A program made the translations under genes and the position numbers. A stretch of DNA of 64,000 bases, taken from Amoebophrya sp. A120 (Eukaryota > Protista > Dinoflagellata). Where the stretch lies: contig CAJINV010000001.1 of the NCBI GenBank assembly GCA_905178155.1, positions 12,956,635 to 13,020,634 of the forward strand, read 5' to 3'. Every line of letters starts with the position of its first letter. Within the stretch, counting starts at the first letter, position 1. Positions 2,178 through 61,300 of the stretch are shown here, piece after piece. The notes below the pieces were generated by a model. It was not told the origin of the DNA. It saw nothing but the letters and a program-made list of their open reading frames with translations, and did not search any database.

Positions 2178-4794
2178 TTAAGTATTCGTCGCAAAGAGCG
2201 GATCCGGGTGCTCAACGCGACTGAGTGCCTGCTGCAGCTGGTATTTCACATCGGTAAATGCAATGTCATCGTTTTCCAGCATCGGAATCAAGGTGCCAAT
2301 GACGTCGAAACAGGACGACCTACTGTCGTCGCCGAGTTTCACGCGCTGCGACAACAGCTGCTCGACCTGTACCCGCACGGAGGAGAACAAGTAGGAAATG
2401 CAGTTTCGGTCCGCCATTTCCCGCTCTCGCGTTGTCTGCTGTTCCGTGTTCATGGAGTTGCCTGTTGCAGAGGAAGGACCGCTGGTCAGCCCTGGCAATG
2501 GGTCGGTCCATCTGATCTGTTATTACCTGAAAATTGATACCCATCCGCATCCACAACTTTTTGAGTGACAAACAGACGAACTACTTTACGCGACCTGACT
2601 TCATGTTTTGCATGACAAATTGAGTTGGGAGCAGGGTTTAATTTTCAGGGAATATCTGTTCCTGGAAGAACTGCTCGTCCGAGGTTCTCGGCGCCCCGAT
2701 ATTGGTACTACTCCCCGCCAGAGCGGTTCCCCCGGAAAAATCTCCGGCATGGAACTGAGGCGAAATCGCTCCATTTGCTGCAAAAAGAGATGGCGACATT
2801 GCGTTTGCTGAAGATCCGCCGCCGAGGAGGAACGCAGTGCTCGAGCCCGTCGCTGTCCTTTCGTTGCTACTAGTATTATTTGAAGCCCCCGCTGAAGCTG
2901 ATCCCGATCCACTTGTGCCGCCGCCAGACGATGAGCTGCCGTTTTTACCGGAAGAGGAGGATGATGGCACCAGACTGCGGAGCAGCATCTCGAGGTACTG
3001 CTCGGTGAGCATACTGGTGACGGCGAGCAGCAGCTTTTTCGGCAACACGGCCGCAAAGGAGGACACCGCGGTGCGCAGGTACTGCAGCGAAGTCGACAAC
3101 ACGGCCTCCGCCGCGGCGTAGCTGGCGTCCTCGGAGATGGTCCGCATGTACTGCTGCAGGTGCTCGCACTTTTTGCCCAACTCCCTTCGCAGAAACTTGA
3201 GCAGCGTTACCAAGTGTGCCTGCCCCAATTTGCGGAGGGACGGCACCACGTCCACCAGCCAAGCCAGGGGCCGGTTGCTGCCGTGCTCGAAGGGTAGCAC
3301 GGTGAGGCAGAACGCGAAGTACAAGCAGTCGTTGTAGAAAATACCGCCGGAGAAGGGGTCGGCCGTCAGTTTCCCGCGGTGCACGTGCGGCCGGACCAGG
3401 AGAAACAGGGTGACCAGCTGCCGCGTCAGCATCTGCTGGTCTTTGGTCTGCGCAGGATCGCGGATGCCCAGACGGACCGAATTCCGGACTTCCTCCACCA
3501 GCCGCAGCACCGACTGGGATACGGCGCAGGGCGTCCACAGGTACTGTGCCAGGTCCTTGTCCAACCCGGCCATAAGCTTGTCGTTCTCCGACGTCGCCGA
3601 TACCTGCACGGTGGTCATGTCCTGCGACACCATCCAATTCCGCGCCTCTTCCAGAATCTTGGCGCGGGCCTGCACGCCGGTCTTCCGTTCCGCGGCCAGG
3701 CTGGTCAAACTGGCGTCCCGCGTGGTGTCTACGAAACCGAGCGCCGCAGCCTTGTTCTGGAACTCCAGCAGCAATTGGGGCTCGCCTGAGCAGTCGCGCA
3801 AATAGTCCACCAGCAGCGGCCACAGGTGCCGGCCCAGGGCAGCTAAAGCCTCGTTGTGCGCTAAAAAATCGCGGAGGTAGCCGATCATGCTACCGAGTAT
3901 GCCGAGCAGAAACTCCAAGCCCTCCTCCCCGGACTCGAGGCTTTCGTTCTCGTCCACGAAAGACCACACGGTCACCTCGTCGTGGGGCTTGAAAATGCGC
4001 GCCGACAGCTTTTTCCGTCGCGAGTCCACAAACAGCGGCGCCAAGATGTACTTGTGCATGCGCTCCGAGAGCCACTTGGTCTTACTCTCCAGAAGCTCCA
4101 TCGTGCGGAGGCCCTCCCACACCTGCAGATTCTTCTCACTGCGATTGATGCAGATCGTGTTGGGCAAAAAGCTGAAAATGTTCTGGAAATTGCGCTCCAT
4201 CCGCGACGAAAAAAGTACAGCTCGCTGCCGAAACTGCACCTCCAGCTGCCCCGCAATGTCCTGCAGGATTGCTGCGGCTGTGGAAGGATTCATTGATATT
4301 GTGTGTTGACGTTGAGTGTTTCGTTCCCGTTTGCACGATAGGGATAGTGGCAAAATTTTGAGGCACGAAAAAGCAACCTAGTACAGAAGATTTTTTCTTT
4401 AAAATCTGCTCCATGAAGATTCCTTTTGCAAGTGTCCTCTACATCATACTCCAAATCTTCTTCACTTTAAGTTCTACATCTACTTTTAGAACTTACGTTT
4501 TGTGCATGTGACGGTGGTTTCGAGAAGTATTTTCGCCTTCTGGTACTCGGCTGCGCACTGTTCGTACTTTCGCTCCCCGAGATGGGCGTCAAAATGTGCA
4601 AACAGGACCTGGAGCTGTACCACAGACACGAGAGCCTGCAGGTCCTCGCGTACGCCCAGTTCTCGAGGATGCAGCTGCTCCAGCCGGAGACTGATTTCCG
4701 TTTCCAGGTCGGTCAAATCTTCCAGAGTACAGCAAAAGTCGATGCTCCCAGGATCGCACGCCGCATACACGCGCGCTGTCAAGTCGGATTCCAT
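2178..4794 (-). CDS. ZW10: ZW10/Dsl1-like kinetochore and ER-tethering protein, 3 exons (approx. 4794-4497, 4277-2655, 2515-2178)
   Basis: ZW10 C-terminal-like sequence PCAVSQSVLRL...LFLLVRPHVHRGKL...IFYNDCLYFA...VPSLRKLG. A probable GTAAGT...CAG intron at 4496-4278 and the hairpin intron at 2521-2654 join three ORFs in frame. The 3' end is uncertain. Confidence 0.7.
2521..2654 (-). mobile_element. Introner A: inverted-repeat non-canonical intron in the ZW10-like gene
   Basis: Terminal inverted repeat tattacctgaaaatt / aattttcagggaata (14/15), flanked by direct repeat tctgt (2516-2520, 2655-2659). Removing it plus one repeat gives ...FQEQ-IRWTDPLPGLTSGP, joining ORF 2638..4353 to ORF 2178..2498. 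Confidence 0.9.
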
Positions 4795-5671
4795 TGTGAA
4801 AATAAAGAAGTTGTACGTAGTTCTTGTGGGAAAAATATCACGGCTATGAAGTTCAAGTTGGCGCGTTTGCTTTTCGCTTTTCTATGAAAGGACTTGAAAT
4901 TATTGGTGCAAGAATGATGTTGAAGCAGCTCCGACGCGACGTGTTCAACACGCGCGGCCTTCTTCCGTGTGCGACCAACTGCATATGAAACTTCGACCTC
5001 GGACGCTGAGGAGGCGTCGAAGATCGATCGTCCTATTTGAAGCGCTCACGACGAGATAGAAAAAAAATCTGCAGGCTCACTTTTGGTGATGGTGCCATTT
5101 GCAACATCTGCAAATTTGCTGTCCTGTGAAGATTCGATCGACTTACCACGAACGAAGGCACGACAAATGTGAATGACTGAAACTGCAGCCGGCGTCAATC
5201 CTCGATTTGGCCCGACCACAATTGATGAGTGACGGACAAGAAAACTGAAAAGCCGCCCAGCGCGCCAAGCGGCTTCAAGGACAAGGTGTGAGTGTCGTTC
5301 GCTTCTTCGTCTCGTCCATTAAAGCAATTATAGGCCGCTTTTGTTGATGGCGCTTATACATAAGGATGCTCATCTGCTCCATCTGTATCGGCAACTTGCA
5401 GACATACCACCTCTAACTTGTCCGACACAACCAGGGGTCGGTCGTGTAACATCCACATCACAATCCACTTGACTTCTTCAACCTCGTCGGCTGCCAGCAG
5501 CAACATTACACTGGATGCGCTCTTTTTGCGTTTGCCTCGTGGCGAGATCCCGGCACTTCCTTTATTTCGCCACACCAGCCCGCCGGGGGCACGTGTGCCT
5601 GTAGTGCTGCAGTGTGCTTATACGAGGCTCTGAAGATGTTGTAGAGCAGGTTCTACCTCGTCCGCCCGCGG

Positions 5672-6397
5672 CTAAACCACATGGAGGCCCTTGCCGCCGC
5701 CACTTCGGTGGTATTCCTCTATGGCCAAGTCGTGCAATAACTGTCGCTGTTCCATCACCTGCTTGAGTTTCTCGTAGTGGCCCTTGGTCCGGCGGCCGAA
5801 AGGGGGAGGAGGCTCGGAAATCAAAGAAAAAAGCCTAAACTTGTTCACATCATCGCGGCTTTAGCATGCAAGTCGCACTCGAGTAGTGGATCTGCGATCG
5901 TGCAGTATGAGAGACAGCTGCTCTCGACGTTCCAGTAATTATGCGTGGCTCTGTTTTACTAGCTAGTTCATCGTCATCATGTAAGATCGACAGAACATTG
6001 TTATCAACCAATGCTACAAGCAGACTCGAAGAACTCGAAGTTGCTGCGAACAAATAAAGGTCTCGTTCTCGAATTTCGTATGCGGAATCAGGCCACTGAG
6101 CGCCAGAATATCCCGTACTGAATCGGACATGTCCGCTCCTACTCCGAGCCAAAATTTGACGCGCGAAAATCGAAGCCTGATCTCCTTAACATTCGTGAAC
6201 ACCTTTGGGGAGTAACTGCCCAACACCTCGATGTGTTTTCCGTTCCGGGGATCGCGCTGGTTGCAGGCAACAAGCTTGAAGAAGGGCTTGCTTGGTTTCC
6301 CCGCCGTTTGGAAGCGGAGGATCGGAGGCCCCCTTTCCTTGCTGTAGTAGGGCAAAAACATGCGCCGCACGAGAGAAGGTCGAGAAAGCGACAACAT
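5672..6397 (-). CDS. MRPS16: Mitochondrial ribosomal protein bS16, 2 exons (6397-~6083, ~5812-5672)
   Basis: S16 motif PILRFQTAGKPSKPFFKLVACNQRDPRNGKHIEVLGSYSP...RVKFWLGVGADMSDSVRDIL; N-terminal targeting-like peptide; second exon PPPPFGRRTKGHY... Confidence 0.88.
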
Positions 6398-7326
6398 ACT
6401 CTTTTTGACAGTACAACTCTCGAGGATCTGAAAAAACGAGGGAGAACAGTAGAAATCAGATGAGGTTTGGTTTCTTGTAAAAAACTAGTATCCTCTTCCT
6501 CGACGCAATGTGTATTGCCATCCTGTTCCGACTACGGGAGCGGATGGCGAATGGAACTATCGCTATGTCGATGGATCTCGTGTTCTGCGCAAATCTTTGC
6601 CAGAACGCTGCAACACTTTCGGCTTCTAGATCTAGATCATCCTAGTAAGCGAGGACACATAAACGACGACCGCTTCTTCATCTATAACTAGCAGGCTACA
6701 ACCAGCACTGAAGCCAGTCGATCTAAACATCTTTCGCTTTCCGATACACAAAAAGCAGAAACGTAAAAATATTTCAAGAACGTCGTGAACTACGAGCGAT
6801 CAAGATCGCGCAACTATTTGGATCACCAGAAGAGCAAGATACATTCATCCGAAGCGAACGAGACCGGGCAACACGACGACGGCGTTGACCAGAACGCCTC
6901 CTCATCCTTAACCTACATGCAGACAGTATGCGAGATAGCAAAAAAATCACAGGCACTTATTAGATTACCATGCAAAAACGCCGAGAACGCGGTTTCGGAG
7001 CGAGACGAGGAACAGCAACAGAGCCTGCCTGTAGCATTGCTTTGCTTCGATAAAGATCAAGTTTATGATATGATTATGAGTTGTTCTGTAACAGGCTTAG
7101 AAACTGCATGCGCAGCGAAGTCAGTTACTAGTAGTAAGTCTAAGTAGCATGAATGTCGTCCGGAAATCCACCCAGGTGGGCGTTATCTAGTATTGTCATT
7201 GGATTTTGACTGTCGTTTTCAGCTGTGTGTCTCCAACGAGACTGCCTTCGAAGAAAACTCAGCCATCGACCTGCACGCAAGCGCCGTCTGCTTGTACTAG
7301 CTGACCATTTTTTCTTGTCATTCGCT

Positions 7327-10300
7327 TCATCTCGGTTGGCTACCTCGACCGCCCTGCTCCTGATCCTCGATCTTCAAAAACTGGCCGCCACAGACTTCCA
7401 TGAGCCACCTCGGCTCGATGGCCATCACGGTGCGCATGTAAGTTTTGGTCGTCGTCACCAGTTCGGTGAAGAGCACCACCTCGGGTGGCGGTTTGGCCTG
7501 GAACAGGACCGAGGTCGGGTGCACGCGCGCGTGCTGCCGCTCCGTGGCGGTGCAGTACTCGCCCGTCGTCTTAGAGGTGAGCATGGCCGTATGGGTGAAG
7601 TTGGCCTTCAAGAAACACTTCCGCACCACGTCCAGCTCCGCCCCGCAGGAGCCGATTTGCCGCACGTGCAAACTGTGCTCCAACAGCTCCTTCAGCTGTT
7701 CGCGTACCTTGTCCGCGCGCTGCAGCGCAAAAAAGTTCAGTCCGTAGTTGTGGCAAAAGGCCTTCTGGTGGTGGTATGTGGCCGCCTTGCGCCACTTTCG
7801 GTACACGTTTAACAGCGACAAGTGGTCGCCGCTGGGGTGCAGCAGCGTGTCGCGCAACTCCTTCTTTCGCTTGTCGTCGGTGATGTTCAAGTAGAAATGG
7901 GCGTCGATGCTGAGCATCGCCACGATGCTGAGCACCTCGGCAGTGCACTCGAAGGCGACGCTCTCTAGTAGAACCAGGCCGAACAACGGGTGCAGCGGCA
8001 ACCGAGCGAGCTTGTGGCCCAGCTCGGTCAGCTCCAGCTTCTTGTTCAGCGCGCCGATGCGCTTCAAGAAGAAGCAGGCCTTGATCATGTGCTGCTTCGG
8101 CGGCACGTCGAGGAAGGGGAACTTGTCCACCTGCGCAACGCCCAGGCTCTTCAGCAGCAAAAACAGCTGCGAGAACTCGGTGCGCAGAATCTCGGGCGGG
8201 GTTTGCGCCGCGAACTTCTGGAAGCAGGCCTCGGGGTAGATCCGGTAGCACTCACCGGGCGCCTCGCGGCCGGCACGCCCGCTGCGCTGGTCTGCCTGCG
8301 CCTTGCTGGTCTCGACCACTTTCAGGCACTCCACGCCGGTGGTGGGGTGCGCGATTTTGAGCTTCACATAGCCGGAATCTACGACGTAGCGGATGCCGGG
8401 GATCGTGATGGACGTCTCCGCAATGTTGGTCGCGAGCACCACCTTCCGTGCGTTCGGCGGCGCGGGCGTAAACACCGACATCTGCTGATCGAAGGGGAGA
8501 GCGGCGTACAGGGGGCAGATCAGAAGGTCAGGATCGAGGCTTTGGGTTTCCTGTCGGTTATTTTCTGTAACGAGGTTTTCATCATCAAGTTCGTCACTCA
8601 GCGGAGACGATATCATGTCAGCATCTTCCGCACCAGTAGTCTTTTCAGCGTGATCTTCAAGAACATCGGTGTCGGCGTCTTGGGCCGCCACTGGCGCTGC
8701 ATCTTGGTCCAGAATCTTGACTTCATCATTCGCAATATCGGCACTTCTTCGCGCAGCATCGGCTGCAACCTTACCATTCGCATTGTTGTTTTTCGCACTT
8801 CGCGCCCGGGCCAGAAGACGACTATCGATGTCGGTTCTGCCCACCACTGCGTCCTCACGGCGCTCGCCAAGGAATTCTTCTTCACCATTTTCGTTCTTCG
8901 CAGTCCCTGAAGATGCTCCTGCGGCAGCCTCATTCGACGTACTTTGCTCCATCCGCCGCCGCTCCTCCAGTAGTTGGCAGAGGGATTCGATGGCCTCTTG
9001 TCCTGGCAGGAAGCACAGGATGTCGCCGAACGCCGGTTTCGTCTTGTGCAGCTGCAAAATGGCCGTGGCACAAGCCAGCATGTAGTCGTCTGCGGGGGCG
9101 GGGGTGTAGTAAAGCTTCACCGGGTGCTGCCGTCCGTCAATTTTCAGCACCTCGGTTTTGAATTCATCCTGGAAAAACCCCCGGAAAGTCGCGACGTTCA
9201 GCGTTGCGCTCATAACGATCACCTTCAGTGGCGGCACGTTCCGCTGACTAGGCAGCAACTTTGGTCCTCCTGGTGCTCCACCTTCCAAATTCAGATTCAC
9301 CTGGCCCTCTGTAGAAGTACTACTTTCCGTTCTTGTGGCAGCCGCTTTTTGCTTACGAATGCGCAGGGCTTCCTTCACGAGACCCATTAGAATGTCCGTT
9401 TGGACGCTTCGCTCGTGCGCCTCGTCCAGAATTACACAGCTATAGTCCAGAAACGCCCGGTCCTGTACGGCCTCGCGGACAGCCATACCGTCCGTCAGAA
9501 ACAACACCTTGTTATTTGGCGCGCTGTAGTCCTGAAAACGGACGCGGTACCCGACCGCGCCATGGCCAAGAGTGGTGTGCATCTCGTCCGCCACGCGTGC
9601 AGCAACGCTAGTCGCGGCTACCCGCCGCGGCTGCGTGCACAAGATCTTGCGCTCCACCGCGCGCGCTAAGAATTGCGGCACCTGGGTGGTCTTACCGGAC
9701 CCCGTGGCAGACTGCAAAATCAGCACGTCGGTGTTGTTATAGGCTCGCAGAATCTCCTCTCGGTGTCGCACAACGGGTAGCAATCCGTCTGTTTGTAGTT
9801 CATCGGCGTCTTTCTGCAGCTTCGCAGGAGAAGCCTCTGAAGGTATATTTTCGTCCGCAGAATCCTTCGAAGAAGTGGGAGTGACACCCTGCTTTGCTGC
9901 TTTTCTTCTCTTCTTCTTAGTTGTTCTCGTATTTTGCATTAGCATTTCTTCATCCGCCTCCAATGCTGCGAGTGCGACGGGACGGTCCTGGACGGAGGGT
10001 GGGGCTGTTGATGACACACTGCTAATGGTCGTGTCCAATTTTCGTCGCTTTTTCTTCTTTATTATTGTTGATGTTGTTCCCTTTGAACAACTCGTCACTT
10101 CTATTTTTGTTGCAGGGGCAGAAGGAGAACGACAACGAGCGCCCCTAGCAGTACTAGCTGCGGATTCGTCATGGAGGAGCATTTTTATTGTCCCCTCTGT
10201 TGATCCCTGAACAACCCGCTCCCCCACGTCCGAATCTTCGTCAAGATCCTCATAATTCGTGCGCACAGCAGCTTCTACAGGTCGTCGTAATTCTGCCTTT

Positions 10301-10575
10301 TGTTGGCCACCGCCTTTGCTTTTTTTCCGAGTCGCGCGCGCACCAATCCGAGTTGTCAGGTGGTCTGCAACACATGGTCGGTCGTCTTCGATACTTCTGC
10401 CGGAGGACTCGTCGATTGATGCTACAACTGCTGCTCCTTCACTGGTGCTGCTACTTCTTCCACCTGGTGTAGTACTGGCACCGGTCACGGTCTGTCGCTT
10501 CAATGTCTTCGACTTTTTCCTCATTTTGATTTTCTCCTTCATTTCTACACACAACAATTTTTGACACTTCAACAC
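7327..10575 (-). CDS. DHX33: DEAH-box RNA helicase, DHX33/Dhr2-like (first ATG at 10542)
   Basis: Motifs GSGKTT, TQPRRVAA, DEAHER, MSAT, TNIAETSITI, QRSGRAGR, followed by HA2 and OB-fold-like regions. Lys-rich N-terminus. The subfamily call is an inference. Confidence 0.85.
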   Translation of the reverse strand: MLKCQKLLCVEMKEKIKMRKKSKTLKRQTVTGASTTPGGRSSSTSEGAAVVASIDESSGRSIEDDRPCVADHLTTRIGARATRKKSKGGGQQKAELRRPVEAAVRTNYEDLDEDSDVGERVVQGSTEGTIKMLLHDESAASTARGARCRSPSAPATKIEVTSCSKGTTSTIIKKKKRRKLDTTISSVSSTAPPSVQDRPVALAALEADEEMLMQNTRTTKKKRRKAAKQGVTPTSSKDSADENIPSEASPAKLQKDADELQTDGLLPVVRHREEILRAYNNTDVLILQSATGSGKTTQVPQFLARAVERKILCTQPRRVAATSVAARVADEMHTTLGHGAVGYRVRFQDYSAPNNKVLFLTDGMAVREAVQDRAFLDYSCVILDEAHERSVQTDILMGLVKEALRIRKQKAAATRTESSTSTEGQVNLNLEGGAPGGPKLLPSQRNVPPLKVIVMSATLNVATFRGFFQDEFKTEVLKIDGRQHPVKLYYTPAPADDYMLACATAILQLHKTKPAFGDILCFLPGQEAIESLCQLLEERRRMEQSTSNEAAAGASSGTAKNENGEEEFLGERREDAVVGRTDIDSRLLARARSAKNNNANGKVAADAARRSADIANDEVKILDQDAAPVAAQDADTDVLEDHAEKTTGAEDADMISSPLSDELDDENLVTENNRQETQSLDPDLLICPLYAALPFDQQMSVFTPAPPNARKVVLATNIAETSITIPGIRYVVDSGYVKLKIAHPTTGVECLKVVETSKAQADQRSGRAGREAPGECYRIYPEACFQKFAAQTPPEILRTEFSQLFLLLKSLGVAQVDKFPFLDVPPKQHMIKACFFLKRIGALNKKLELTELGHKLARLPLHPLFGLVLLESVAFECTAEVLSIVAMLSIDAHFYLNITDDKRKKELRDTLLHPSGDHLSLLNVYRKWRKAATYHHQKAFCHNYGLNFFALQRADKVREQLKELLEHSLHVRQIGSCGAELDVVRKCFLKANFTHTAMLTSKTTGEYCTATERQHARVHPTSVLFQAKPPPEVVLFTELVTTTKTYMRTVMAIEPRWLMEVCGGQFLKIEDQEQGGRGSQPR

Positions 10576-10659
10576 TTTAGCTTCACCATGGTTTCGATTG
10601 AAGGGTTAGCCGTCGAATCTTTATGAGTGTATTTTGAAACACTAACACACTTCTTGTTG

Positions 10660-11145
10660 TCAGGATCCCGCACCCGAAAACAGTGCCATTGATAGTGGTG
10701 GAAGATCAAGTGCCTGTAAGACAGAAACTTGAGGTAGCATTTAAAGATGCGGGCAAAAAATCATGAAGACACAGCATCTCGGCATGATCAATGAACCGGC
10801 ACAATATATAATTTGATCTTAATTTTTTCCACCAATACCAGTTGACAGACATGCAGATCTTCAAAGCTGGATGAAAGACATTTCCATGCACTTCCAATTT
10901 GCAGCCACTGGCATGATCTCCTTTCGGTGCGTGTGCCGGTAGTGATAGATCATTTCACCGACCGTCAAGGCAATGGAACGATACCATTCTTGAAGATCGT
11001 GCCCATGACTCATTTCAACATCAAGATCAACCTGAAGATCTCTCCGGGCAAAGATCGATGATTCAGCCGAGAAATTTGTTGCCTTTCGGGTTTCAGATCA
11101 TGTCCTCCGCGTTTGGCGGGTTTGTGTTTCATCTCTGATCCATTC
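10660..11145. promoter_or_regulatory. GATC-dense island upstream of the helicase gene
   Basis: 13 GATC counted by hand in about 480 bp (about 2 expected at uniform composition). Function is inferred only. Confidence 0.5.
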
Positions 11146-11774
11146 AATCAATGCGTTTATTCGCCTTATTGCTGTCTATGTCTATCTCTATTCAAAGTGT
11201 GGCACATACTTGGCGATACCAAAACCGACACCGACAACGCATCAAGCTGCGACAGCGTAGTCCAACTGAAACATGAGGTCTGCGACCCAGAAGCAAGCAG
11301 CTTCGACGTTCCTGGTGCATTGTTGGTTGCTCACAAGCAAGCGACACACAAGTGCCGCGGTGCGGACAAAAAAGTTGATACTATGCGTTCTTAAAAAAAA
11401 TAAAAAAATCGAATCAAGAGCTACACGTAGCAGGGGGTACCTGCTACAAAAAGCTCTTTCATGTCTAGGTGCATATTAGGGTAAAGACTACTAGTAGTGC
11501 ACTTGTGCGTTGTCTGTTCTGGGGTACAGATACAGACGCCACAAAGAAACCCGAGACAGTGTAAACTCGACTGATTTCTACATCATTCCTTCCATAGGAT
11601 AAAAGAAACTACTACTTCTTACTTAGACGACACAACCACAAGAAAAACTACTCGATCTACTGAGTGTTTGTGCTGTCGTCTGAGGTGTTTCAAAAAAAAC
11701 CCGCTGATCATCTGCTGCGTTGGTCGTGAAGAAGAATGCGCTCATTCGAACATTTTGAAGTACGTCGGTTACAC

Positions 11775-14700
11775 TTACACAACCGCGCCGTCACTTCGTG
11801 GCGTGTCCTCTGTGTCTCCGACGTGCAATTTGGGCATGCTCGCCAGCACAGCGGAACTTGCGGTGCTGGTCCGCAAGGACGCGGCACTCCGTATGGGGCT
11901 CTCAAACGTTACATTCTCAACTGTTACATGATTTGTCATGCAAAAACACTATCACTATTCACACGACCCAGCCTGCCTTGCATGACAACTTCTCGACGCG
12001 CTACATAGCACTATAATCAGTCCCAAATCTGTAATGCAAAAGGCGCAATCTTCCTCCTGTACTTTTGCCACTCTTGCATTGCAAATTCATGTAACAGCTG
12101 AGAATGTAACGTTTGAGAACGCCATACTCCGACGGCGGAGCCCGGCGTCTCGGGAGGCGCACTGGCCCTCGTGAATGCCGAGATCGTATCAAATGCAAAA
12201 GTGTCTGGGTCTGGAAACTTGTGATGCAAGTCAGGGAAAAATGCGCATACTGTATATGCACTGCCGAGCATGACAAGTTTTTCCGTGGTTCAGAGTTGCG
12301 TACTCCGCATGAGACACTGCGTTTTTGCATGACAGGCAAGAGAAGCCCTTTGCGGCCACGCAATACAGAGCTCAGAGTCATGCCGGACTAGCATGACATA
12401 TCCCGGAATCATCCAGACCCAGACATTTTTACTTTTGATAGATCGCACGCGGGAACTATTTCGCGACACCCGCGCTGGAGGTATTTGCAATGTACGGGCC
12501 GCAGCCCACACACGCATTTCTCGTGTAGCCGCCGCGTGTTCTCATCCCGGAAAGCGCGATCGCAAAACTGGCACCTGAGCGCGAGCAAATGATCGACTGC
12601 GGGCGCGGCGGCGCGCAAGCTGGTCGTGATCGGTCGAGACACGCCGGCAGCGAAGGACTGCAGATCCTGTCCCCTCGTGGCTCGGCTTTCCAACCGGTCT
12701 GCGTTGGAAATATTTGACGAGAAAGCTGAAGGGCTCTGTCGCTGTTTCAGTTCCTCGCGATGAAAAGCGTCGAACTTTTGCCCATCTCTGACCGGGTGGA
12801 TCGCGACGGACTGAATCGCCGCATCGACCTGCGACTTAAGATCGGTGTGGTCGGCTGCGCGCGCCAGAAACTGGCATCGGTCCAGGTGCCGTGGCAATGA
12901 CGACTGGGTAAAGTTGCGGCCACACCCCGGACAGGCGTGCCACGCCTCCATCTTTTTCTGCTGGAGCGTTTGCACCCGCTGCGGATCGAACTCCGCAGGC
13001 AACGCGATCTTGCGACTCCGAAACCGCTCGACGGAGTAGGTCCCGGGGCCTGGCGCGAGGCGGCGGTCCCGGTCGATGATGCCGCGGTCGTGCAGCGTCA
13101 CCGGAATGGTGTAGCAGGGCTGCGTTTTGGTCTGCTTCACCGGGTTCGCGTACGTTCCGGGGCCCGGCGTCTCATTCCGCTCCGCGGCGAGGACGATGTA
13201 GGTTTGTCTGCCCGGTAGGGACGACGGCGTACTCGCGCCCAAACGGCCTCCGCCCGCGGTGTTGAGCTGGTGCGCGACCTGGTGGCCGTCTGTGTCTGTT
13301 CCGTTATTTTCTCCTGGTCCTGCCGAGTCTTTCGTTTTTTCCAGGGAAGTCGCGGCTGTGGAACCGGAATCTTTCTCGACCACCAGGGCTTTTATGTAAT
13401 CTGGAACCGCCGTGGCATTTTGCTCATCCGAGTTTATTTCCGCATCTACTTCTTCGCCGTCACTCCGCGGTGCGCCCTTCGTAATCGAAAAGAGTGGCGC
13501 GCTCGGACCTCGCGTCCGCTTACGGACCGTGCGGGACTCCAATCCAAGCACCGAGTCCACAGGTTCCAGGGAGAGCCAGTAGGTGTCAAAAGCCTCGTCT
13601 GTCGAGGCAGCGTAGAGGCCGCGCAGCTCTTTTTTCGTTACCACGCCGCCTCCGAGTACGCCGTCGTAGCGAAATTCCGAACGGACCGCAGTCCTCGTCC
13701 GCGAAGTAAGTCGTGTTTGCAGCCCCACAGTTTGATCAACCTGTTCACCTAGAAGTTCCTCGCTCTGATCTGTAACGACCACTGCAGTATCCCCGCCAAC
13801 TTCTGGCTCTGGCGAGAGCGCGCCCTCGTGCTGCGGTAGGGTGTCGAACCAAGCTCGCAGCTCAGCTTCGTCCGTATCGCCACCATAGGCCGCTTTGAAC
13901 TCCTCGAATGAATATTCCACCTGCTCTGGGTCCTCCGGATCGTATCTTTTCACAACTACAGCTGGAGCTAATACGGCCTCCTGGCCTGATTGTGCACCTA
14001 CTGCTCCACCTTTTACCGGTAGGCCCTGCCAGAACGCTTCGAAATCTTCCTCGGTTTCGTCTGAGTAAAACTCCCGAAACTGTTCCCGGGTGTACTCGCC
14101 CTCCTCTGGGTCCCCGGGGTCGTACCGCTTTTCGTCTTGTTGCGCGCCGGCGCCGCCGACTGCGGCAGCTGGAGGCCCTGCTCCCTCCATGCCTTCTTCG
14201 AGGACTGCATCTGCGGTGCTCGGTCGATACCAGGCGCCGTCATCCTGCTCTCCCTCCGCAGCCGCTCCTGCAGTTGCTGGCGAAGAACTCGCTCCGGCGA
14301 CGGCTATTGGCAACGACTGGTACCAGGTGTTGAACTGCGCGTCGGTCTCGTCGGGGTAGAATTCCCGAAACTCCGCGCGTGTGTAGGCTGCTTGCTCCGG
14401 GTCCTCCGGGTCCGTGCGCTTTTCCTCTGGTGTGTTAATGCCCGCGCCCCCCTCGTCGGGAGCGAACAAGAAGCTCGATGAAGGATAGCGGGAACAGCAT
14501 CTTTTTGACAACGCTTCTTTGTCACAATACTCATCCTGCAATGCCTGTTTACCATCTCGTCCGACGTTGACCACGAGGACGTCCTGATGACGAGCGAAAC
14601 CACGATCAAAATCTACCGCACCACTGCATTCACTGTTTCTTTCTGGGTAATACAGAAAAGCCGGTGGCAAACCCCTGGGCTGTATGCAATCGACCGCCCG

Positions 14701-15963
14701 AGCCTCGTTATCTGCGAACACCCGGTCGATATTGCGCTTTCCTCGCGCCGGCTGGTCACCGATTTGATGCCTCACACGACCTCCTGCGCGGGCAGCCGAG
14801 TCGGCCTCATCACTACCGACCTGCAGGTGCCCGTGGTCCAAAAAGCCACCCTCGCGCACGTCGCGGCAGCTGGCGGTAGGCATGGCTTTTCGCACGGGGT
14901 ACGCCGACACGTCGAACTGCTGCACGCCCCTGCGGTTCCGATGCTCCGCCGCGGCTTCCTGCCCGGTGTGCTGCAGCGCTATCCCGCCATCATGGTCCTG
15001 AAACCCGCCGTCTTTGTAGTCACGCCGGTACTGCTGCTTTAGCGGCGCCGATTTTGCGACTGTTAGTGGCCGCCCGAGCCGATTTTCGACTACCCCGGGC
15101 CCGCCGGATTCTCCATCTTTGAACTGGTGGAATATCGAGTAGTCGCTGTGCTCCTGGCTGAAGTCCAAGTTCCGCAGTGGGCGGGACTTATCGATGGTAG
15201 TGGCGTGAGGTTTGTGCTTGAACCAGACTTCGGCGTCTGTCTTCGCTTGGTTTTCCTGGTCCCCGATATGAAAGCCATTCCGAAAGTCGGCCGAAAAGTC
15301 CACTGTTTGTTTCTTCCGGGCATCCGGCGCAACAGCGTTGGGGCCGCTATTCGCCGGTGCGCCATCCAGGCGGCGCGTCACGTCCGTGAACTTCAACCTT
15401 TGCGACGTGGATCTCTGCTTCAACTGCTCGGTGGGGTTTGAGGAGACAGCTTCTGGCGTCCTCGGGCGCAGCCGCGCAAGTTCCGGCGGCCGCGGAGCTG
15501 ATGCTGAAGCAAGAGCAGGGTCATGGTTGATTTTTTCTGTCGGCGCCAACAGGTGGTATTCCTTGTGCCAGTCGCTCGTGTCGTTTTTGGGCGGAATCTT
15601 CACTATACCGCCGTAGTCCGGCTCCTCCCGATACCACCAATACGGGTTCGCACCCACAATGTCGGCGCTGTTTCGGTCCCTGGTCTCGTCCAGCACACTG
15701 TAGCGATCCCGCTTCACCTCAGCATTCCGATTGTTGCGGTTGTGATTTTTCTGCAGACTCTGCCCAGCTTCGTCACACCGCCCGTCCGGGTGCGGCTGAA
15801 GGCTGAGAAGATCATAATTCCGTATATTCGGATCACTCTCCTTCTCGTAGCGAAGGTGCTTGTGACGAAAATCGGTGCGGTGAAGGTCGGCCGGCTCGAA
15901 CAACGGGAGGCCCGTGTATTCCGGAACCTCGCTGTCAGGTGGGAGATCGCACTCGACCGTCAT
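11775..15963 (-). CDS. Large protein with 4 acidic 'RYDPEDP..Y..EF..FY..W..LP' repeats, 2 PGPGTY (SHIPPO-type) repeats, a C2HC zinc finger and a TRAF-like zinc finger; 3' end split by two introners
   Basis: ORF 12409..15963. After removing introners B and C the frame continues CREIVPACD-LGIHEGQCASRDAGLRRR-SAASLRTS...DGAVV* (TAA at 11775-11777), which completes the Cys/His finger. Confidence 0.8.
11892..12126 (-). mobile_element. Introner C: inverted-repeat non-canonical intron
   Basis: Terminal inverted repeat tatggggctctcaaacgttacattctcaactgttacatga matches the other end at 37/40. Direct repeat ctccg at 11887-11891 and 12127-12131. Confidence 0.92.
12187..12440 (-). mobile_element. Introner B: inverted-repeat non-canonical intron
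   Basis: Terminal inverted repeat tatcaaatgcaaaagtgtctgggtctgga matches the other end at 26/29. Direct repeat gatcg at 12182-12186 and 12441-12445. Removal restores the zinc finger. Confidence 0.92.
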
Positions 15964-16885
15964 CTTGGCGAGAAAGGCTCAACCGTCAAGAGCGCATGGA
16001 ACGCAGGAAAGATATTACAGTGCCAGGGACAACACGAATACTTCGTGAAAACAACGCCTCCTTCGAATCAGATACAAGCCGCAGGAGCTACTTCTAGCAC
16101 AATGGTGAAGGGGATTCTTCTGTTAATGGTATGGTGTAAATGAAGTTAGTGCTACTTGTGTGCGTCGCAACTGATTGTAAATTACTTATTCACTTTGTTG
16201 ATGCGAGTGCGACGTAAACGAGGCACACGACGTGACCCGTCGCACGCGCAGCTTTCACTGGAAAATGAACGACCGCAAGCCGAATACGAAGTGGAAACAA
16301 GCTTGCAATACATGGATAAGGTAACAGGAAGGTGCAGAAGCACGACGAATGAACTGTGTTGCACGACACGACACATTGTGTAGAACGACTAAAACATCCT
16401 GGCTGAGGGTCCATCGCCTTCTCCTTTCTTTTGTTGCTGGACGAAGAAGAAATGGAAATGGATTCAGCTGCGCTCTACTACACAATGAACGAGGACCGAA
16501 TTACGGTTGAACCGCAGCTACTGTTGCGCATTTTCACTTTTAGACTTTTACAACGACAGGGATAACCTTATTGCATGGCATGAACGATGAAAACACCGGA
16601 AACTCTTAACGAAACTCTTGCCTTGCAGCTGTTTACGAAATTTGCAAGAGCACCAATGGATGAATGGCGAACCTTTATCTCCGAACACAGTCGCTCTTTC
16701 GTACGAAGAGCGAAAGCTACGCCTTTCGGGCATAGTGGCGAGCTAAGCACTACTACTGCGCCTGTGTGTATGAGGAACTTCTTCTGCGAATATTAGGACA
16801 AAGACATATGGAGGACATTCACATGTCGTGTCTGCATGCTAGCACCACTGGCAACAGCGAGCTGAAAGTAGAACCCCGATCGAAT

Positions 16886-17489
16886 TTACTTCAGCACGGT
16901 GACCTTCCTGCGTCCCTTGATTTCCTTCTTCTCGAGGGAAGGAGTCAAAGACTGCGCCAAGCGGTCCGCCTTCGTCTTGTCCTTGACAACCAGAGTGTAC
17001 CTGAAATTTTGATTTTGTTGGATATTTAGATCGATCGAGGACGAGGACGTTTCGATGTTGGCCTCAGTCATGCTACAACTCTCTCAGCAATAGGCGTCGA
17101 AACCGAGTAAAGCAAATCAAACTTCGAGTAAAACTCGTGCGGGTCTGCAAAATTGGTTTAGGTTTCCTTTCGACGAAAAGCACACCTTCCCTCTTAAGCT
17201 ACTCATACCGACACTCTACTGCGTATTTCGCCATGTTGCTCTACACGGCAGTGAAGATGAATATGGAAAAATGCGCCAGCACTGTCTTTAAATTGTCCAA
17301 AAGTTATCTCGAAAGGCAAGGAAAAGCAAAATGTGCATATTCATACAGGTAGCGGGAGCAGCGAATCTTGAACTTGGTGACGACGTTGCCGCTGGACTGC
17401 TCCGGACTCTTCAGGATGATCACCTTCTTGGCATCCTTTCGGCGGGAGTGCTGCAAGAAAGTGCGGATTTCCTTGATTTCCTTCGGCAT
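16886..17489 (-). CDS. RPL38: 60S ribosomal protein eL38, 2 exons (17489-17347, 17000-16886)
   Basis: [18 protein letters not shown]...[10 protein letters not shown]|[18 protein letters not shown]; canonical GTATGA...TTTCAG intron 17346-17001. Confidence 0.96.
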
Positions 17490-17634
17490 CTTTTAGTTTT
17501 GGTTTCCGAAATGATTTGTCCTACTATGCAGAAGAATTCTCCTCTGAAGTTCCCTGTGGTTTTTGTTTCCACGGTGACAAAAATTGGTTGGCGAAAAAAA
17601 TATACATTTATGACAGGGAGGTGTCCGTGGTTTT

Positions 17635-18300
17635 ACCGATCTTCTTTCACAGTGAGCATTTTTCCACGAATCTCATATCAGCCGATCCTTTGTCCGGATG
17701 TGCATTCTGATCTCCAGATATCTAAAGAAGCAGATCTGGCGGAAGATTTAGATTTTCGCCTTTTTTAGAACCCGATCGCTTTCGAATTGATTTTGATCCT
17801 GTTGTGCCTGCACATGATCCGAAATGACTCTCATGAATTTCAATTTCTCATTCTCTTGTCTCTTTTGAATTTGATTTTGATCTCATGTGCCGTCTGCAAT
17901 TTGAATTTCTTTCACCACTGAGACAAGATCGAAGGAGGCTTTGGAGATTCTCCTCCGATGGATCTTTTAAGGAACAAAAATCTTCGCTCGAAATAATACA
18001 TTGCCTAGGGTGCATAACTCAGCGTGTTCTGTACAAAATCTAGCTCAGGCACATTTCATGATGTCAATCACATTGACCTTGACACCATGGAAAAGCACTC
18101 AGGCGTCAGGAGATGCAGGGTGAACAACATCTGGCGCAATCACTTTAGATGCGACAAGTTTTTTTGATCACGAATTCGTCCCCGTCTGTTCACTCTTTCG
18201 ATCCAGGAAATTGCCGCGTCTAGTTCTTGCAAGTCAGATGATGGAGCCTGATCTCCTAGAAAGACGATCGCTACAATCTAAATTGCGACTGCGCGATCTC
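17635..18300. promoter_or_regulatory. GATC-dense island between the eS31 and eL38 genes (upstream of RPL38)
   Basis: About 15 GATC in 660 bp by hand count, 10 of them in the 330 bp nearest RPL38. Confidence 0.5.
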
Positions 18301-18483
18301 TCTCGTTTCCGTCGTTGAAAAAGCCACTCAATCATCATCTATTTTCATCTTCGCCGCACACGGACTCAAAATAGAGAGAAAAACATCAACTGCCAAGCAG
18401 TTGCAGCTCATCTTCCGTAAATTCGACACGCCTTCCGTGCGCCGTCACGACATCGGAGTTCCTCCGAAGTTTAAATTTGGTGT

Positions 18484-19147
18484 CTACTTCTCCTCCTCCT
18501 TGTTGAACATGAAGGTGAGCCCCGACTTCCCGCAGTGGTATCGGTTGTGGTGCATGGCCATGAAGACGCCAGCTCCGGCGATCGGGCTCTCCTTACGTAA
18601 GCGGGTCACCTTTCCATCGCCGCCGACCTAAACCAGAAATTTAGATTTAGATGTCATAGTACTAGCTCTTCATCAACATGCTCGGCTTTTGGAGCTCACA
18701 AGCAAATCACTTTTTGAAACTACTAAATGTGGCATCGTGGACGAATCCGAATCTGTCGTTCCTAGCTAATAGCTTGTCCGTTTATGATGACCCTATGATC
18801 ACAGCAGAAGGTGAAGTACGTATTGTTATTGGTTTTACCTTGTAGTATTTCAGCACTGCGAGCTTGACCTTCTTGTGCTTGTGCTTGATCTTCTTCGGCT
18901 TGGTGTACTGCTTCTTCTTGCGCTTCTTTCCCGCACCGAGCAGGTCGACGTTGACGTCGACAGTGCACTCCTCTTGCAACACATCCCCGACGAAGGCATC
19001 CTCCGGAATGTCCTTACCCGCGTAGGACAAGTGGAGATTTTCCTCAACATCCAACGTGGAAATCAACTCACCCACGGTTGCCTTCTCGTCGATGCAACGC
19101 ACCTGGGAGGTGCCGTCGACACCACGCACAAAAACCTGCATCGGCAT
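18484..19147 (-). CDS. RPS27A: Ubiquitin-like / 40S ribosomal protein eS31 (S27a) fusion, 2 exons (19147-18839, 18627-18484)
   Basis: [31 protein letters not shown]|[39 protein letters not shown]; canonical GT-AG intron 18838-18628; divergent Ubl N-terminus MQVFVRG... Confidence 0.95.
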
Positions 19148-20035
19148 AGCTCTGCAAAGAAATGATCCGACTAGGTGTAAGAGAGGTTCGATAGAAACAA
19201 ATAAACGGGAAAAATCCTAGGACCACAGCGAACCGGGGCGGACTGAAGAGTCAAGTGAGGAGCACAATGTTGATTTTGTTTTTCCAGTTTCAAATTGAAT
19301 GATGAAGAAGAGCCAATAACCGGCACTGAACCCGCAGCGCGATCTTCAGCAGTACAGCGCAAGCCGAAGCTTTAAATTTAGGTGCGTTCGTGCATGATCG
19401 TTCTTGTTCCATAATACCCATGCTCGACGTCCGAAGTGAGATCCATTAGCTAGTAGCGCATCGGAAGATGCTACTTCCACTCGCTGCAAGATACAGATGA
19501 TACACACATATACATATTACGAATACGCTACCAGGGCACTTGATCTTTCATCTCCTCGAAATGGATCTTAAAAAACTCAGCAACTGTACCAGAATAGGGG
19601 GAACAAAGAGTACACAGGATCTTCCACACATCGACATCTTCTACTAGACCAGAAATCCTTATTCATCGACGCTGGTAGTGTGCACCCTAAACTAATGATC
19701 GGTTTGCTGCCCTCAACTCCTTCAACTGTAGTCACACGACGAGCCATTACCTTTGCTTCCAAATCCAATAGGAGTGTCACGGCTTTTGCTTTACTGCTCG
19801 CAGACATTATTCACGACAGAGAGTTCAAAGATAAAGTCCATACGCAAGAGTGAATGCGTAGCGCAGCTTTCACATTCATATTCGCTGCCGAAAAGATAAA
19901 GAAAGTGGTAGTTCTAGTTGTAGCTCATTGATTCGTTTGCAAAAAAGACAGGATGCAGACGAGTTGCCATTCTTCATTCAGCACGGAATCAGTCGCCAAC
20001 ACTGAAACATTCGCGGTGGGTACGTCCCCTCAAAC

Positions 20036-33097: not shown

Positions 33098-33151
33098 CAG
33101 GTGTAATCGCTGATGGAAACCAATCTATCCCAAACAGACGCGGAGTTGGAT

Positions 33152-33904: not shown

Positions 33905-34049
33905 TTTGTGTGATTTGGTTCTGTTTCCCCGAAACTAAAATTCTAAAACGAGAACCCTCGTTTTAAATGTCCCTGTGTGCGGTTTCGACAAGAGAAATAA
34001 ATAAAGGAGGGGCTTCTTTCACGTCCAGAATAAGCAAGTTCTATGTCGA

Positions 34050-58358: not shown

Positions 58359-61300
58359 CTACGGTCCGACATGTTCGCCCTGTTCGTCGTGGAGGTGTCC
58401 TTGATCTCGTGCCTGTGCAAGCATGAAGGTACTGTTGATCGAGTTTGGGTTCGCAGTTGCCATGGGAAGGAGGCGCTCCAAATCTTGTTTCGGAAGCCCC
58501 AGTCGCAGTGCCGTGACCGCGGCCGTCACAGACACGATTAGTATCGCGAGCAGAAGTAAACTCGATAGAAACACTACAAAATGTCGAGATAAGCTCCAAA
58601 CCGACGAAGATGTGCATTCGTCTGTGAGTACCGGCTGGGCTGCGGCCAGGTTCAATTGCTGCTTCTCTGCGTCGGACTTGGAGTTCAGCTCGGCAAGCCG
58701 AAACTTCATATCCTCCAAAACCCGCTCTACGTCCTTCACACTGTCATTCAGTTTTCCCAGCGTTTCGCCGTGGCTATCAGCTTCCTTTTGCTCTCTTGCC
58801 TTCTTCTCCTCCTCTTCTTTCCTTTGTTTTTCTTCCTTCTCCGCCTGCTCCTTTTCGTCTTTTGCATTTTGATAGTCGTCCTCCTTTTTTTCTTTTGCAG
58901 CCTTTTCAGCCTCTTGCTTTTTCTCCTTTTCCAACTTCTCCTTCTCCTCTGTGTCTTTTTTCGCCTGCTCCTCTTCGGAATTCGTATTCCCATTGCTTGC
59001 TGCTGGCAATGCTTCTGGCGCATTTTCATTTATCTGTGCTCCCTCCCCTGCGACCTTGGCTGCTGCTTCGCCGCCATCGCTGGCTTCCGCGGCCAACACC
59101 TGCTTTTCGGTTTTCTTCAGGTACTCGTCGCGCGCCTGGGCCTCGATGCGCTCCTTCTCGAATTTCGCGTCGTCCGCCTTGCCCTTTTCCGCGATCTCCT
59201 GCTCCACGACCTCTTGCCGGCGTTTGATATTTTCCTCCGCCTCCTCGGCGGATTCCTTGGCGTCGTGCACTTTCTCCATTTCCTCGGCTCGAATTTCCAC
59301 GTCGCGGTTCACCTTCTCGAGCGCCCTCTCGGAGCTGCGCCGCTGCAAGGCCTGGGCGCGGTCCGCATCGTCCGCCAGCAGCTTGTCCCGCACCTGTCGG
59401 AGCTGATCCGCTTCCGCCCGCAACGCCAGCGCCTGCGCGTCCAGGTCCACACTGCGCGACCTTTCGTGCTCGGCGGCCCGCTCGGCCTCCAGCTTGCTCA
59501 GGTTCTCCTGCGCCTCCGCGTAGGCGCGCGTGCCGCTCGACTGCAATTTGATCTCCGCTTTCAGCTTGTTGATTTCCTGTGTCAAATATGCAATACAATT
59601 TTCCCGTACTACATGTACAAGTTGCATCACAAATTTCAGCAATTTGGAGTAGGTCATGCTAAACGTCGAGGGTCAAAACCAAGTTTTGTCATGCGGAGAC
59701 CGCATTCCGATTTCCACGTGTAGTACGGGAGATTTACTGTGGATATCAAGCTCGCGATGGCCGCGGCGGCGTTCATCTTGCGCTCCGCGTCGGTTTTCTC
59801 GAACTGGTTTTCTACCTCTTCCACCTTCTTTTGCGCGTCCTCCTCCTGCTGTTTCGCCGCGCTCACGAGGTCCTTGTCCTGCTTCAAGATCTTTTCGTTC
59901 TCTTCCGCCTCGTTCGATTTTTCCCGCTTCTCCTCTTCCGCAATCTGCTTTGCCCGCTGGTCCACCTCGGCCGCCTTCGCGGTCACGTCCTCCAGGCCCT
60001 TCTGCACGCCGACGGAGTCGTCCTGTAAATTGTCCAGGTCCACGGCGATCTTGTCCGCGGCTTGCTTTCTCACATCCGACGCGAGGTCGGCCGCCTGCTT
60101 CGCCACCTCCGCCTTCGCGTCCAGCGCCAGACGCTGCCGGTCTTGCGCGGCGTCCATGCTTTCCAGGGACACCTTCTGCCGCGCCATTTCGGCGGCGTGC
60201 CTTGTCTTTTCCTCCTCGGAGTCCTTCGCGAGCTCTTCGCCCATTTTCTGCGATCCCACCACGGCCTTCTGCAAGGTTTTGTCCGCGTCGCGCAGCACTT
60301 CCTGGGCCTTCGCGTTTTCCAGCCGGGCGTCGGCCTTGATGCGCTCGATGGTGGTCAGTGTCTTCTTCACCTGTCCGCGCGCGGTCTCGCGCTCGGTGCG
60401 CAGCCGCTCCAGGGTGTTCTCCGTGATCGACCCCATGCCAGGGTGGTCCAGGGCCTTCAGCTTCTCCTGCTGCAGCTTGGCGCGCGCGAGCTCCAGATCC
60501 AGTTCGCCCTGCACGTTGTCGGTTTGCCTTTTCAGTTTTTTCTTCGCCGTCTCATCGAGGTTTTTCTATCCAGGAAAAGACACCCATCCCCATCCATTTT
60601 CTGCATGACAAATAGTGGAATTTATGCACGTTTTGCATGACAAATTGGATGGGGATGGGTGTTTTTTCCTGGATATTTTCATCGTGTCTTCCATCAACTG
60701 CTTCATCTTCGCCACCTCGTTTTCGTATTCCGTCGCCAGCTGCTTCTCGAGAGCCAGGCTCTCCGCGCGCGCGGCGGCGCTGGGCTCCGCGGCATTCACC
60801 TGCAGGAACGCGGACTGTTCTCCGTCAAGGTCAAGTGAGGCTCGCGCGCCCGGCACTTCGTCGCAAAACGGGAGAGAGCTGGCGGACACGACGTTTGATG
60901 GGGCATGCTGGAGCTCGTGCTCATGCGTTTTCTTTTCCCGCCGAAGCAGGCGGCGTTTCTTCACTCGGTGGACATGCACTTCCAGCGCACTTGTTGCAGC
61001 TGCACCTTCTTCAGCAGCCGGCTTGTCGCCATCGGCAGCAGCCGGCCCTTCATTAGATTCTTCTTTCGATTCAGTTTCTGCCACTGCAGGCTCGTCCTCT
61101 TTTTTCTCTTCGCTCGCCGTCGTGTTTTCTTCTTTCTTCTCGGCGTCATCGGAAGCAGCAGAGGATTCCTCGTCTTTCTTTTCAGCATCTTCTACTCCTA
61201 CTTCAGCGGGCTTTTCATCTTCTGACTTTTTTTCCTCATCGCCTTTTTTGTCTTCGGAGTCTGATTCGTCTTTTTTTTCCTCGTCATCACCACTGCTTGA

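Follow-up and report, generated by a model that had tools for sequence, protein, structure and literature searches.

Non-GT-AG introner elements of Amoebophrya sp. A120: evidence towards removal from RNA, a likely cut inside the 5-bp repeat and an apparently strand-specific TA at the 5' end

How is an insert without GT-AG ends taken out of a coding exon so exactly that the reading frame is restored, and where does the cut fall? The question is raised by five short elements, each starting with TAT and ending with ATA, in a 64-kb stretch of DNA (hereafter the window) from Amoebophrya sp. A120, contig CAJINV010000001.1. For tens of thousands of non-GT-AG introns of Amoebophrya, the way of removal has been open since 2021 (PMC7789003). 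The elements themselves are not a discovery; what would be gained here is that the splicing question becomes directly testable. All coordinates are given in the numbering of the window, and the host frames lie on the minus strand. The elements and the genes that carry them are as follows.

2521-2654, minus strand: element 1, 134 bp, between two copies of TCTGT (2516-2520 and 2655-2659); likely intron 2517-2655 (AT..AG) or 2518-2656, 139 nt lost
11892-12126, minus strand: element 2, 235 bp, with 44-nt inverted arms, between two copies of CTCCG; likely intron 11888-12127 (GT..GA) or 11889-12128, 240 nt lost
12127-12186, minus strand: mini-exon between elements 2 and 3, 60 bp including both inner repeats; 55 nt net in a transcript contig of set X3 (see below)
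12187-12440, minus strand: element 3, 254 bp, between two copies of GATCG; likely intron 12183-12441 (CT..AT) or 12184-12442, 259 nt lost
59587-59745, minus strand: element 4, 159 bp, with the imperfect repeat TCAAA/TCAAG; likely intron 59583-59746 (AT..TG) or 59584-59747, 164 nt lost
60567-60675, minus strand: element 5, 109 bp, with 34-nt arms, between two copies of TTTTC; likely intron 60563-60676 (AT..AA) or 60564-60677, 114 nt lost
2181-4794, minus strand: host gene of element 1, encoding the 752-aa protein P0001 with a ZW10_C domain
11777-15978, minus strand: host gene of elements 2 and 3, a 1234-aa frame after removal, with a C2HC zinc finger and SHIPPO repeats below the Pfam cut-off
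58359-62278, minus strand: host gene of elements 4 and 5, a 1213-aa frame after removal, with no Pfam family

The TAT start, the ATA end and the inverted terminal arms are present in all five elements, as the first-pass annotation of this DNA had described. Its 5-bp direct repeats are perfect in four of them and imperfect in element 4. A search of the window for TAT..ATA pairs whose end bases are complementary at 20 or more of 30 positions returned exactly these five, with the repeat matching at 4/5 or 5/5 positions in all. By comparison, 100 block-wise dinucleotide shuffles gave a mean of 0.29 such pairs, and none with a repeat of at least 4/5. Fold z scores are -10.0, -8.0 and -10.7 for elements 2, 3 and 5.

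Taking out each element together with one repeat copy (139, 240, 259, 164 and 114 nt) does join the minus-strand frames, from 579 to 686 aa at element 1, from 1189 to 1234 aa in the second host and from 570/303/437 to 1213 aa in the third. If retained, elements 1, 3 and 4 shift the frame, and elements 2 and 5 bring in-frame stops. P0001 is an annotated Amoebophrya sp. A120 protein (100% identity over 99+541+113 aa), and element 1 is already left out of its annotated model; its gene also has one GT-AG intron, at 4278-4496. By this identity the window belongs to A120 or to a strain that cannot be told from it. No register of any of the five elements gives GT-AG ends (0/5). The statement that sliding the junction never yields a GT or GC donor went too far, since element 2 has one register reading GT..GA on the transcribed strand.

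The five inserts are A120 introner elements as published (Farhat 2021), in the published strain. This assignment is made because every feature tested agrees: TAT in 5/5, AAA at positions 11-13 on at least one end in 4/5 and at 13-15 in element 2, the identity of the host, a direct repeat within 3-5 nt, removal at non-GT-AG ends and repetition in the genome. The link to the inverted-repeat introner elements of Amoebophrya, which had been drawn from the sequence, is thereby supported by the host protein and by the element features. In A120 these are described as inverted repeats that start with TAT, followed by about 7 variable bases and an A run, between direct repeats of 3-5 nt, and RNA-seq supports them; the reported number is 29,850 copies in 1,954 families, and an example in the legend of Fig. 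S19 has 5-bp direct repeats (PMC7789003). The same text states that the intron border is unknown, describes no clear splice signature and argues against a general mobilisation by transposase. It reports nearly all spliceosome proteins and the U2, U4, U5 and U6 RNAs in A120, with U1 RNA undetected. The nine commonest non-canonical ends of A120 all have T as the second base, and those of A25 are all TT, in elements that start TTA (PMC7789003). How the A120 ends were placed within the ambiguous repeat is unstated in that text.

Removal was followed by comparing contig sets with the window outside 20001-44000. Three sets (X3, X5 and X6) were taken as RNA by guess; they are cDNA-derived and represent two samples of one study. 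The set X1 consists of DNA-like contigs, is probably the window's own source and was the only DNA-like set compared. Element 1 is skipped (139 nt) in X3 and X6, element 2 (240 nt) in X3, and elements 4 and 5 (164 and 114 nt) in X3, X5 and X6. The skip of element 3 (259 nt) in X3 is deduced from the pieces of one contig, which leave a 55-nt gap, equal in length to the mini-exon. The transcript mapping that had been suggested as a check therefore shows the elements plus 5 nt to be absent, at non-GT-AG ends. Ordinary GT-AG introns are indeed present in neighbouring genes: seven were skipped in the same RNA-like contigs, and all seven begin with GTA.

X3 is without cover over several bins where X1 is flat. 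The contigs of X1 run ungapped over elements 1 and 4 at background depth, and no empty-site joint for these two elements was found among the X1 matches listed. They also pile up on element ends, with a summed depth of 117,694 and 9,700 in two bins versus about 43-45, which reflects many look-alike ends and is not a copy number. The first-pass annotation had placed removal at the RNA or the DNA level. The evidence settles towards RNA and away from DNA, because X1 keeps elements 1 and 4, the RNA-like contigs skip the elements, and the TA at the 5' end is strand-specific, as described below.

A larger sample of elements came from related loci. A pattern taken from element 3 matched 147 loci of a metagenome collection. 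The 143 that were kept all belong to contig set JACKZZ01 and amount to 540 kb, overlaps included. The source of this set is a close relative and not the same strain: one gene is 1 residue off its A120 model, another has many substitutions and small indels, and a third is 96% identical. In blastn, elements 2, 3, 4 and 5 gave 20, 38, 2 and 7 rows in these loci, and element 1 gave none at E 1e-10. The end type of element 3 is the commonest there, in loci that were themselves picked with element 3.

Among 331 inverted-repeat clusters, collected without assuming TAT and with query-like ones left out, TAT..ATA with a 5-bp repeat is dominant (112); at the offsets tested, 152 clusters lack a repeat. 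The 5-bp repeat is perfect in 257 of 363 short TAT..ATA elements and matches at 4/5 in another 51; a 4-bp repeat was found in one and a 6-bp repeat in none (lengths scanned up to 10 bp). Their target bases are close to background, i.e. the sites are near-random. A gapped catalogue holds 365 elements, versus 2 in shuffled sequence. One rule of TAT/ATA with 5 bp thus runs across many inverted-repeat types, as had been proposed from the five elements. The end types share a TAT-(C/G)-N6-AAAA start and then diverge, and families lie both ways to transcription (28:20, 16:11, 8:8, 8:8, 8:3, 7:1, 8:0 and 1:3).

Where the two repeat copies differ, the product shows which base is exonic. Transcripts of element 4 in X3, X5 and X6 keep base 1 of the upstream copy, the other four letters fitting either side; therefore the 3' cut lies past ATA. 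Eight mismatched junctions were further compared with A120 proteins. Five were synonymous and three informative, the number of upstream bases retained being 1-4 in the first, at least 3 in the second and at most 4 in the third. The first of the three, in the dehydratase gene of locus L053, has an arginine that needs downstream base 5 in 118/119 homologs, independent of annotation, and a methionine that needs upstream base 1 in 3/3 homologs inspected. Since all four informative junctions agree with 3 or 4 bases kept, these sequence comparisons indicate that the cut likely lies inside the repeat, after base 3 or 4, and not at TAT or ATA. Under register 4 the intron would start N-T-A-T, which would put T and A at donor positions +2 and +3.

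None of nine non-synonymous mismatches at position 4 separated register 3 from register 4. Thirty exact look-ups yielded 4 A120 proteins, one of which does not reach across its junction; a homolog search for locus L032 found nothing, and an AT bias did not point to the mutated copy correctly in cases whose direction is known. By codon position, 101 of 206 elements have their first repeat base at position 3, 59 at position 2 and 46 at position 1 (p 6e-6). Under register 4 this is an excess of phase 0, and no preference seen at the target sites was strong enough to explain it. On the sense strand, repeat bases 2-4 hold somewhat fewer T than expected (68 versus 98), possibly an effect of the null.

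As for the usual splice signals, GT-AG ends are possible in 8 of 132 oriented elements with perfect repeats (antisense control 4), and U2-type ends were rejected on this count and on their absence from the window. Any of GT-AG, GC-AG, GA-AG or AT-AC is possible in 19 (antisense 12), and 32 have neither a GT/GC donor nor an AG. Mismatches between the repeat copies occur at all five positions (11, 7, 4, 8 and 8). A GA donor, suggested by the presence of GA in all five repeats, was also rejected: the choice was post hoc, GA/TC is found in 3/10 flanks inspected by eye and the repeat matches the null.

A constraint on the 5' TA was predicted, and the prediction was set down before the test. In a strict search, 14 elements have a one-base end variant. 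Six of these are changed in T1 or A2, of which two were orientable, both changed at the 3' end; by eye, 5/6 are at the 3' end and one is unassignable. With relaxed thresholds, 23 end variants were found (a set that overlaps the strict one), and the TAT/ATA ends are thus not fully invariant, contrary to the earlier description. Here T1/A2 changes number 10 at the 3' end and 0 at the 5' end, with 2 unoriented (two-sided p 0.002), and base-3 changes number 7 at the 5' end and 3 at the 3' end, with 1 unoriented (Fisher p 0.003). The commonest variant is TAC. The orientation rule agreed with the open reading frame (ORF) method in 141/149 cases. From these counts, the 5' TA appears to be kept under a strand-specific constraint, and the 3' ATA does not. 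At bases 4-34, no difference in composition was found between the two ends (5' versus 3', 206 elements).

Next, the elements share an internal motif, TTGTCATGCAA, found in the window with at most 1 mismatch at the following positions.

2608, 11933, 11978, 12219, 12325, 59622, 60601 and 60633 (starts), both orientations: 8 copies of the motif

All 8 copies lie within the 891 bp of the five elements, for which shuffled elements give 0.06. In the form TGT[C/G]ATGC the motif is present in 318/345 related elements, at 9.9 per kb; elsewhere in the window its density is 0.05 per kb, and the 7 canonical introns of the window have none. The strict motif is missing in 27/345 elements. The motif lies immediately inward of the inverted repeat, in either orientation, and its distance from the end is most often 33-34 or 41-45 nt (pooled). 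With weighting by end type, 43/67 clusters have it within 60 nt of the end, and the spacing is looser. Subterminal repeats bound by the transposase are known from hAT and CACTA elements, and by this analogy we read the motif as a putative transposase-binding subterminal repeat. As a shared sequence it offers a probe for the missing transposase.

These observations can be joined in one scheme. An integrase-type transposase would bind the internal motif and insert non-autonomous copies with a 5-bp stagger. In the pre-mRNA the element ends would pair, and a relaxed spliceosome would take N/TA as donor, the TA being +2/+3 of GTA. The hairpin would act as a ruler that sets the acceptor about 4 bases past the ATA/stem, and exactly one repeat's worth would be lost, restoring the exon whatever the target or orientation. 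That a relaxed spliceosome with an N/TA donor and a hairpin-placed acceptor removes non-autonomous copies of an integrase-type transposon is, in our judgement, slightly better than an even bet. It is favoured because the same contigs skip seven GT-AG introns and the DNA-like contigs keep the elements, and because 7/7 canonical introns begin with GTA, the nine published A120 ends have T second and A25 elements start TTA. The spliceosome as agent, register 4 over register 3, the hairpin as acceptor ruler and the motif-binding integrase-type transposase are steps that we infer from these patterns. Of the structure-guided removal proposed earlier, the non-canonical part holds; a purely structural route is too strong a claim, as removal seems to need a sequence signal, TA, at the 5' end.

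Several results weigh against the scheme. Neither a lariat nor a branch point nor any dependence on the spliceosome was observed, and the RNA evidence consists of contigs from two samples of one study whose RNA label is a guess. The register rests on four junctions, three of them from another strain read against A120 gene models. In 168 repeats there is no excess of a +1 purine or of AG versus a phase-matched null (AG at bases 3-4: 19 versus 15.1), and therefore the usual pairing of the first and last intron bases has no counterpart. The 10/10 count at the 3' end was obtained with thresholds relaxed after a first run with two oriented cases. With the two ends pooled, conservation of TAT does not exceed that of the inner repeat bases (9, 10 and 15 of 209 versus 3-13). 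Stems show no excess of G.U over A.C on the RNA strand (91 versus 82, p 0.54), and elements 1 and 4 fold weakly (z -1.8 and -1.9). The first A of ATA as the branch A was not supported, since a change of ATA to GTA is tolerated.

What else could produce so exact a loss? A structure-guided nuclease and a ligase acting on RNA outside the spliceosome, with the 5' UA as the enzyme's recognition site, would suit the lack of a GT, AG or branch consensus, the strong terminal stems of 3/5 elements and the 457-1148-bp copies that keep their ends and repeat around unrelated cargo. U1 RNA is undetected in A120 (PMC7789003), and a nuclease-ligase route is suspected for the nonconventional introns of euglenids, which exit as circles with no lariat (PMC11282704). 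We still regard this explanation as rather unlikely: the dinucleotide that is kept and the probable register fall on +2/+3 of the GTA donor in the window and agree with the TTA start of A25, and the transposon-derived introns of Fritillaria appear to be excised by the spliceosome (PMC11282704). Alternatively, removal could be spliceosomal with the hairpin incidental, the acceptor being set by a motif-bound protein or by pairing through the duplicated 5 bases. The weakly folding elements 1 and 4 are still exactly removed, the RNA strand shows no wobble bias, and the motif is present in all five elements and in 318/345 related ones. The two orientations of the motif and its distance from the end suggest binding to double-stranded DNA, however, although the phasing weakens with families weighted equally; repeat mismatches at all five positions and the 27/345 elements without the strict motif also make this version improbable.

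The remaining explanations do without splicing. A hairpin between short direct repeats is the published signature of "falsitrons", false junctions made by reverse-transcriptase slippage, and all of the RNA evidence is cDNA-derived. Against this, retention shifts the frame in 3/5 elements and meets stops in the other 2, a conserved enzyme and fragments of Rpb1 are split by elements, and both the strand-specific 5' TA and the tolerated repeat mismatches would be unexpected of an artefact; we consider it the least probable of the explanations. Programmed excision from DNA in some life stage is very improbable. The internal eliminated sequences of ciliates have TA-bounded inverted ends and pointer-like repeats, a likeness that was counted for it, as was the dependence on a single DNA-like run, whose contigs drop rare variants. 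On the other side stand the X1 contigs that cross elements 1 and 4 ungapped with no empty-site joint, and a constraint that follows the transcribed strand. A symmetric DNA excision or a slip in vitro would be indifferent to which end faces the promoter, so the asymmetry of the ends argues against both. Element length +5 modulo 3 (126, 98 and 121) has no bias (p 0.14), an outcome to be expected of any exact removal, whether from DNA or from RNA.

The relaxed spliceosome thus remains the reading that we prefer. Together, a fixed register and a strand-specific TA predict where a lariat or circle starts, two indispensable bases and a sequence-free 3' end. If the spliceosome acts here, it would be among the most relaxed known, which would explain a cheap spread of transposons through coding exons. 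A bolder version, to which we give somewhat less than even credence, is that the spliceosome has dropped both GT and AG, needs UA at +2/+3 and has its acceptor measured by the hairpin, and that one integrase-type transposase, binding TGTCATGC and not the variable inverted repeats, explains the approximately 2,000 families. If true, any 5-bp-duplicating TA..TA transposon that lands in an exon would make a perfect intron there, whichever way round it sits.

A good minigene test case is offered by the dehydratase gene mentioned above, and longer elements were also found in the related loci.

L053, 2120-7274: 357-aa dehydratase gene (P0011), a bacterial-type UDP-N-acetylglucosamine 4,6-dehydratase
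L022, 5314-5770: longer element, ends and repeat kept around unrelated cargo
L041, 571-1051: longer element, the same
L042, 3862-4492: longer element, the same
L062, 5791-6762: longer element, the same
L064, 8960-9455: longer element, the same
L073, 6550-7697: longer element, the same

The dehydratase gene is cut by 15 elements into 16 exons, and each element must go with one repeat. Exons are as short as approximately 8 nt net, and the searched exon is 44-60% identical to proteins of a prokaryote collection; the gene is a possible horizontal acquisition. Of 10 long TAT..ATA pairs, 6 (457-1148 bp) can be read as short elements that carry cargo, and the other pairs are probable cross-pairings. 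In the 1148-bp element the junction after removal matches an A120 protein at 21/21 residues, and the 972-bp element sits among fragments of the RNA polymerase subunit Rpb1. A 6.2-kb pair in L059 was rejected as an autonomous copy, being actually a host gene with many short elements.

The first-pass annotation had suggested a search for long copies that encode a DDE transposase. Longer copies exist, but no transposase family turned up among the ORFs scanned (28 from 7 longer copies, 14 from the window and 115 from the related loci). The single transposase family that the first-pass annotation saw behind the common rule is therefore a putative one. A search of viral contigs gave 0 matches. One ORF, at 3800-5008 of L011, matches the C-terminal part of A120 protein P0010 (906 aa) at 96% identity; it ends in a CCHC-like knuckle, has no Pfam family and is possibly retroelement-related.

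In the rest of the window, a sixth non-canonical skip, which the first-pass annotation had overlooked, and two further genes were recorded.

5814-6080, minus strand: 267-nt skip with ends TA..GA or AT..CG, in one X6 contig only, at depth 24
7327-10605, minus strand: DEAH-box helicase with HA2 and OB-fold domains
18839-19147, minus strand: N-terminal ubiquitin-like-looking segment ending LLGAG, then a lysine-rich stretch; no Pfam family at E 0.01

The sixth skip has imperfect inverted ends of approximately 8 nt, no clean 5-bp repeat and one degenerate motif at 5861, and is probably a decayed element; its start can be read as A/TAC, fitting the N/TA rule. The DEAH-box class includes spliceosomal helicases, and no link was seen between the helicase of the window and the elements. 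The lysine-rich stretch at 18839-19147 is of a kind typical of ribosomal S27a; without a Pfam match, the segment is possibly a fusion that has diverged strongly. Elements 3 and 4 are separated by about 47 kb in which no TAT..ATA element lies (window 20001-58000 remarked). The density of 5-6 elements in the 64-kb window compares with more than 10 per 10 kb in some related loci, which were picked for holding an element.

Lastly, the elements can be set against known systems. Their class is already known, from the TAT start and 5-bp repeat (Farhat 2021) and from the 5-bp target-site duplication (TSD) with TA/TA termini (Gozashti 2025). The text of Farhat 2021 mentions neither an internal motif nor a 5'/3' asymmetry, and its Fig. 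3 logos may already show the T at +2. What is added here are the register, the 5'/3' asymmetry and the internal motif, of which no report was found in the published text searched, figures aside. A120 family 38 is listed as "Ginger; 5-bp TSD, TA/TA Termini", with an ORF of integrase-like homology and without true Ginger termini, and most of the other A120 rows among the 50 of 58 considered in Dataset S2 are DNA transposons with terminal inverted repeats (TIR) of unknown superfamily (PMC12130899). Family 38 has five copies with a coding remnant, whereas the elements of the window are 109-254 bp and non-coding. To judge by the listed duplication and termini, mobilisation may be shared with family 38.

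IS3EU and GingerRoot transposons have TA..TA or TAY..RTA termini and no target base preference but make 6-bp duplications (GingerRoot 72/77; PMC10045372, PMC12730594, PMC6839031). The termini, with TAC as the commonest end variant, and the lack of a target preference are alike here, and 6-bp duplications were found in 0/363 elements. Of the IS3EU lead in the first-pass annotation, the termini and the likeness to an integrase-family TIR transposon therefore stand, and membership in IS3EU does not. Ginger1 and Ginger2 were rejected on their TG..CA termini, against TAT..ATA here, although their 4-5-bp duplication fits (6 for Ginger2 in another source). IS481EU fits in its termini (TNT..AYA) and was rejected on its duplications near 4, 15 or 25 bp, a 4-bp repeat being present in 1/363 elements within the scanned lengths of up to 10 bp. 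For hAT5 the 5-bp duplication fits, and no hAT protein was found among the ORFs scanned.

The closest parallels in introns are the nonconventional introns of euglenids and those of Fritillaria, which also have transposon-like inverted ends, duplication-like repeats and no GT-AG (PMC11282704). Euglenid junctions tend to Y/R and leave as circles (PMC11282704), whereas here no Y/R preference was found, the repeat bases at the likely cut positions matching a phase-matched null. Fritillaria favours AG-AC/AG-AT (PMC11282704); in the elements studied here, by contrast, a random 5-mer supplies the first and last bases of the intron, and nothing but the TA that follows the 5' cut appears to be fixed.

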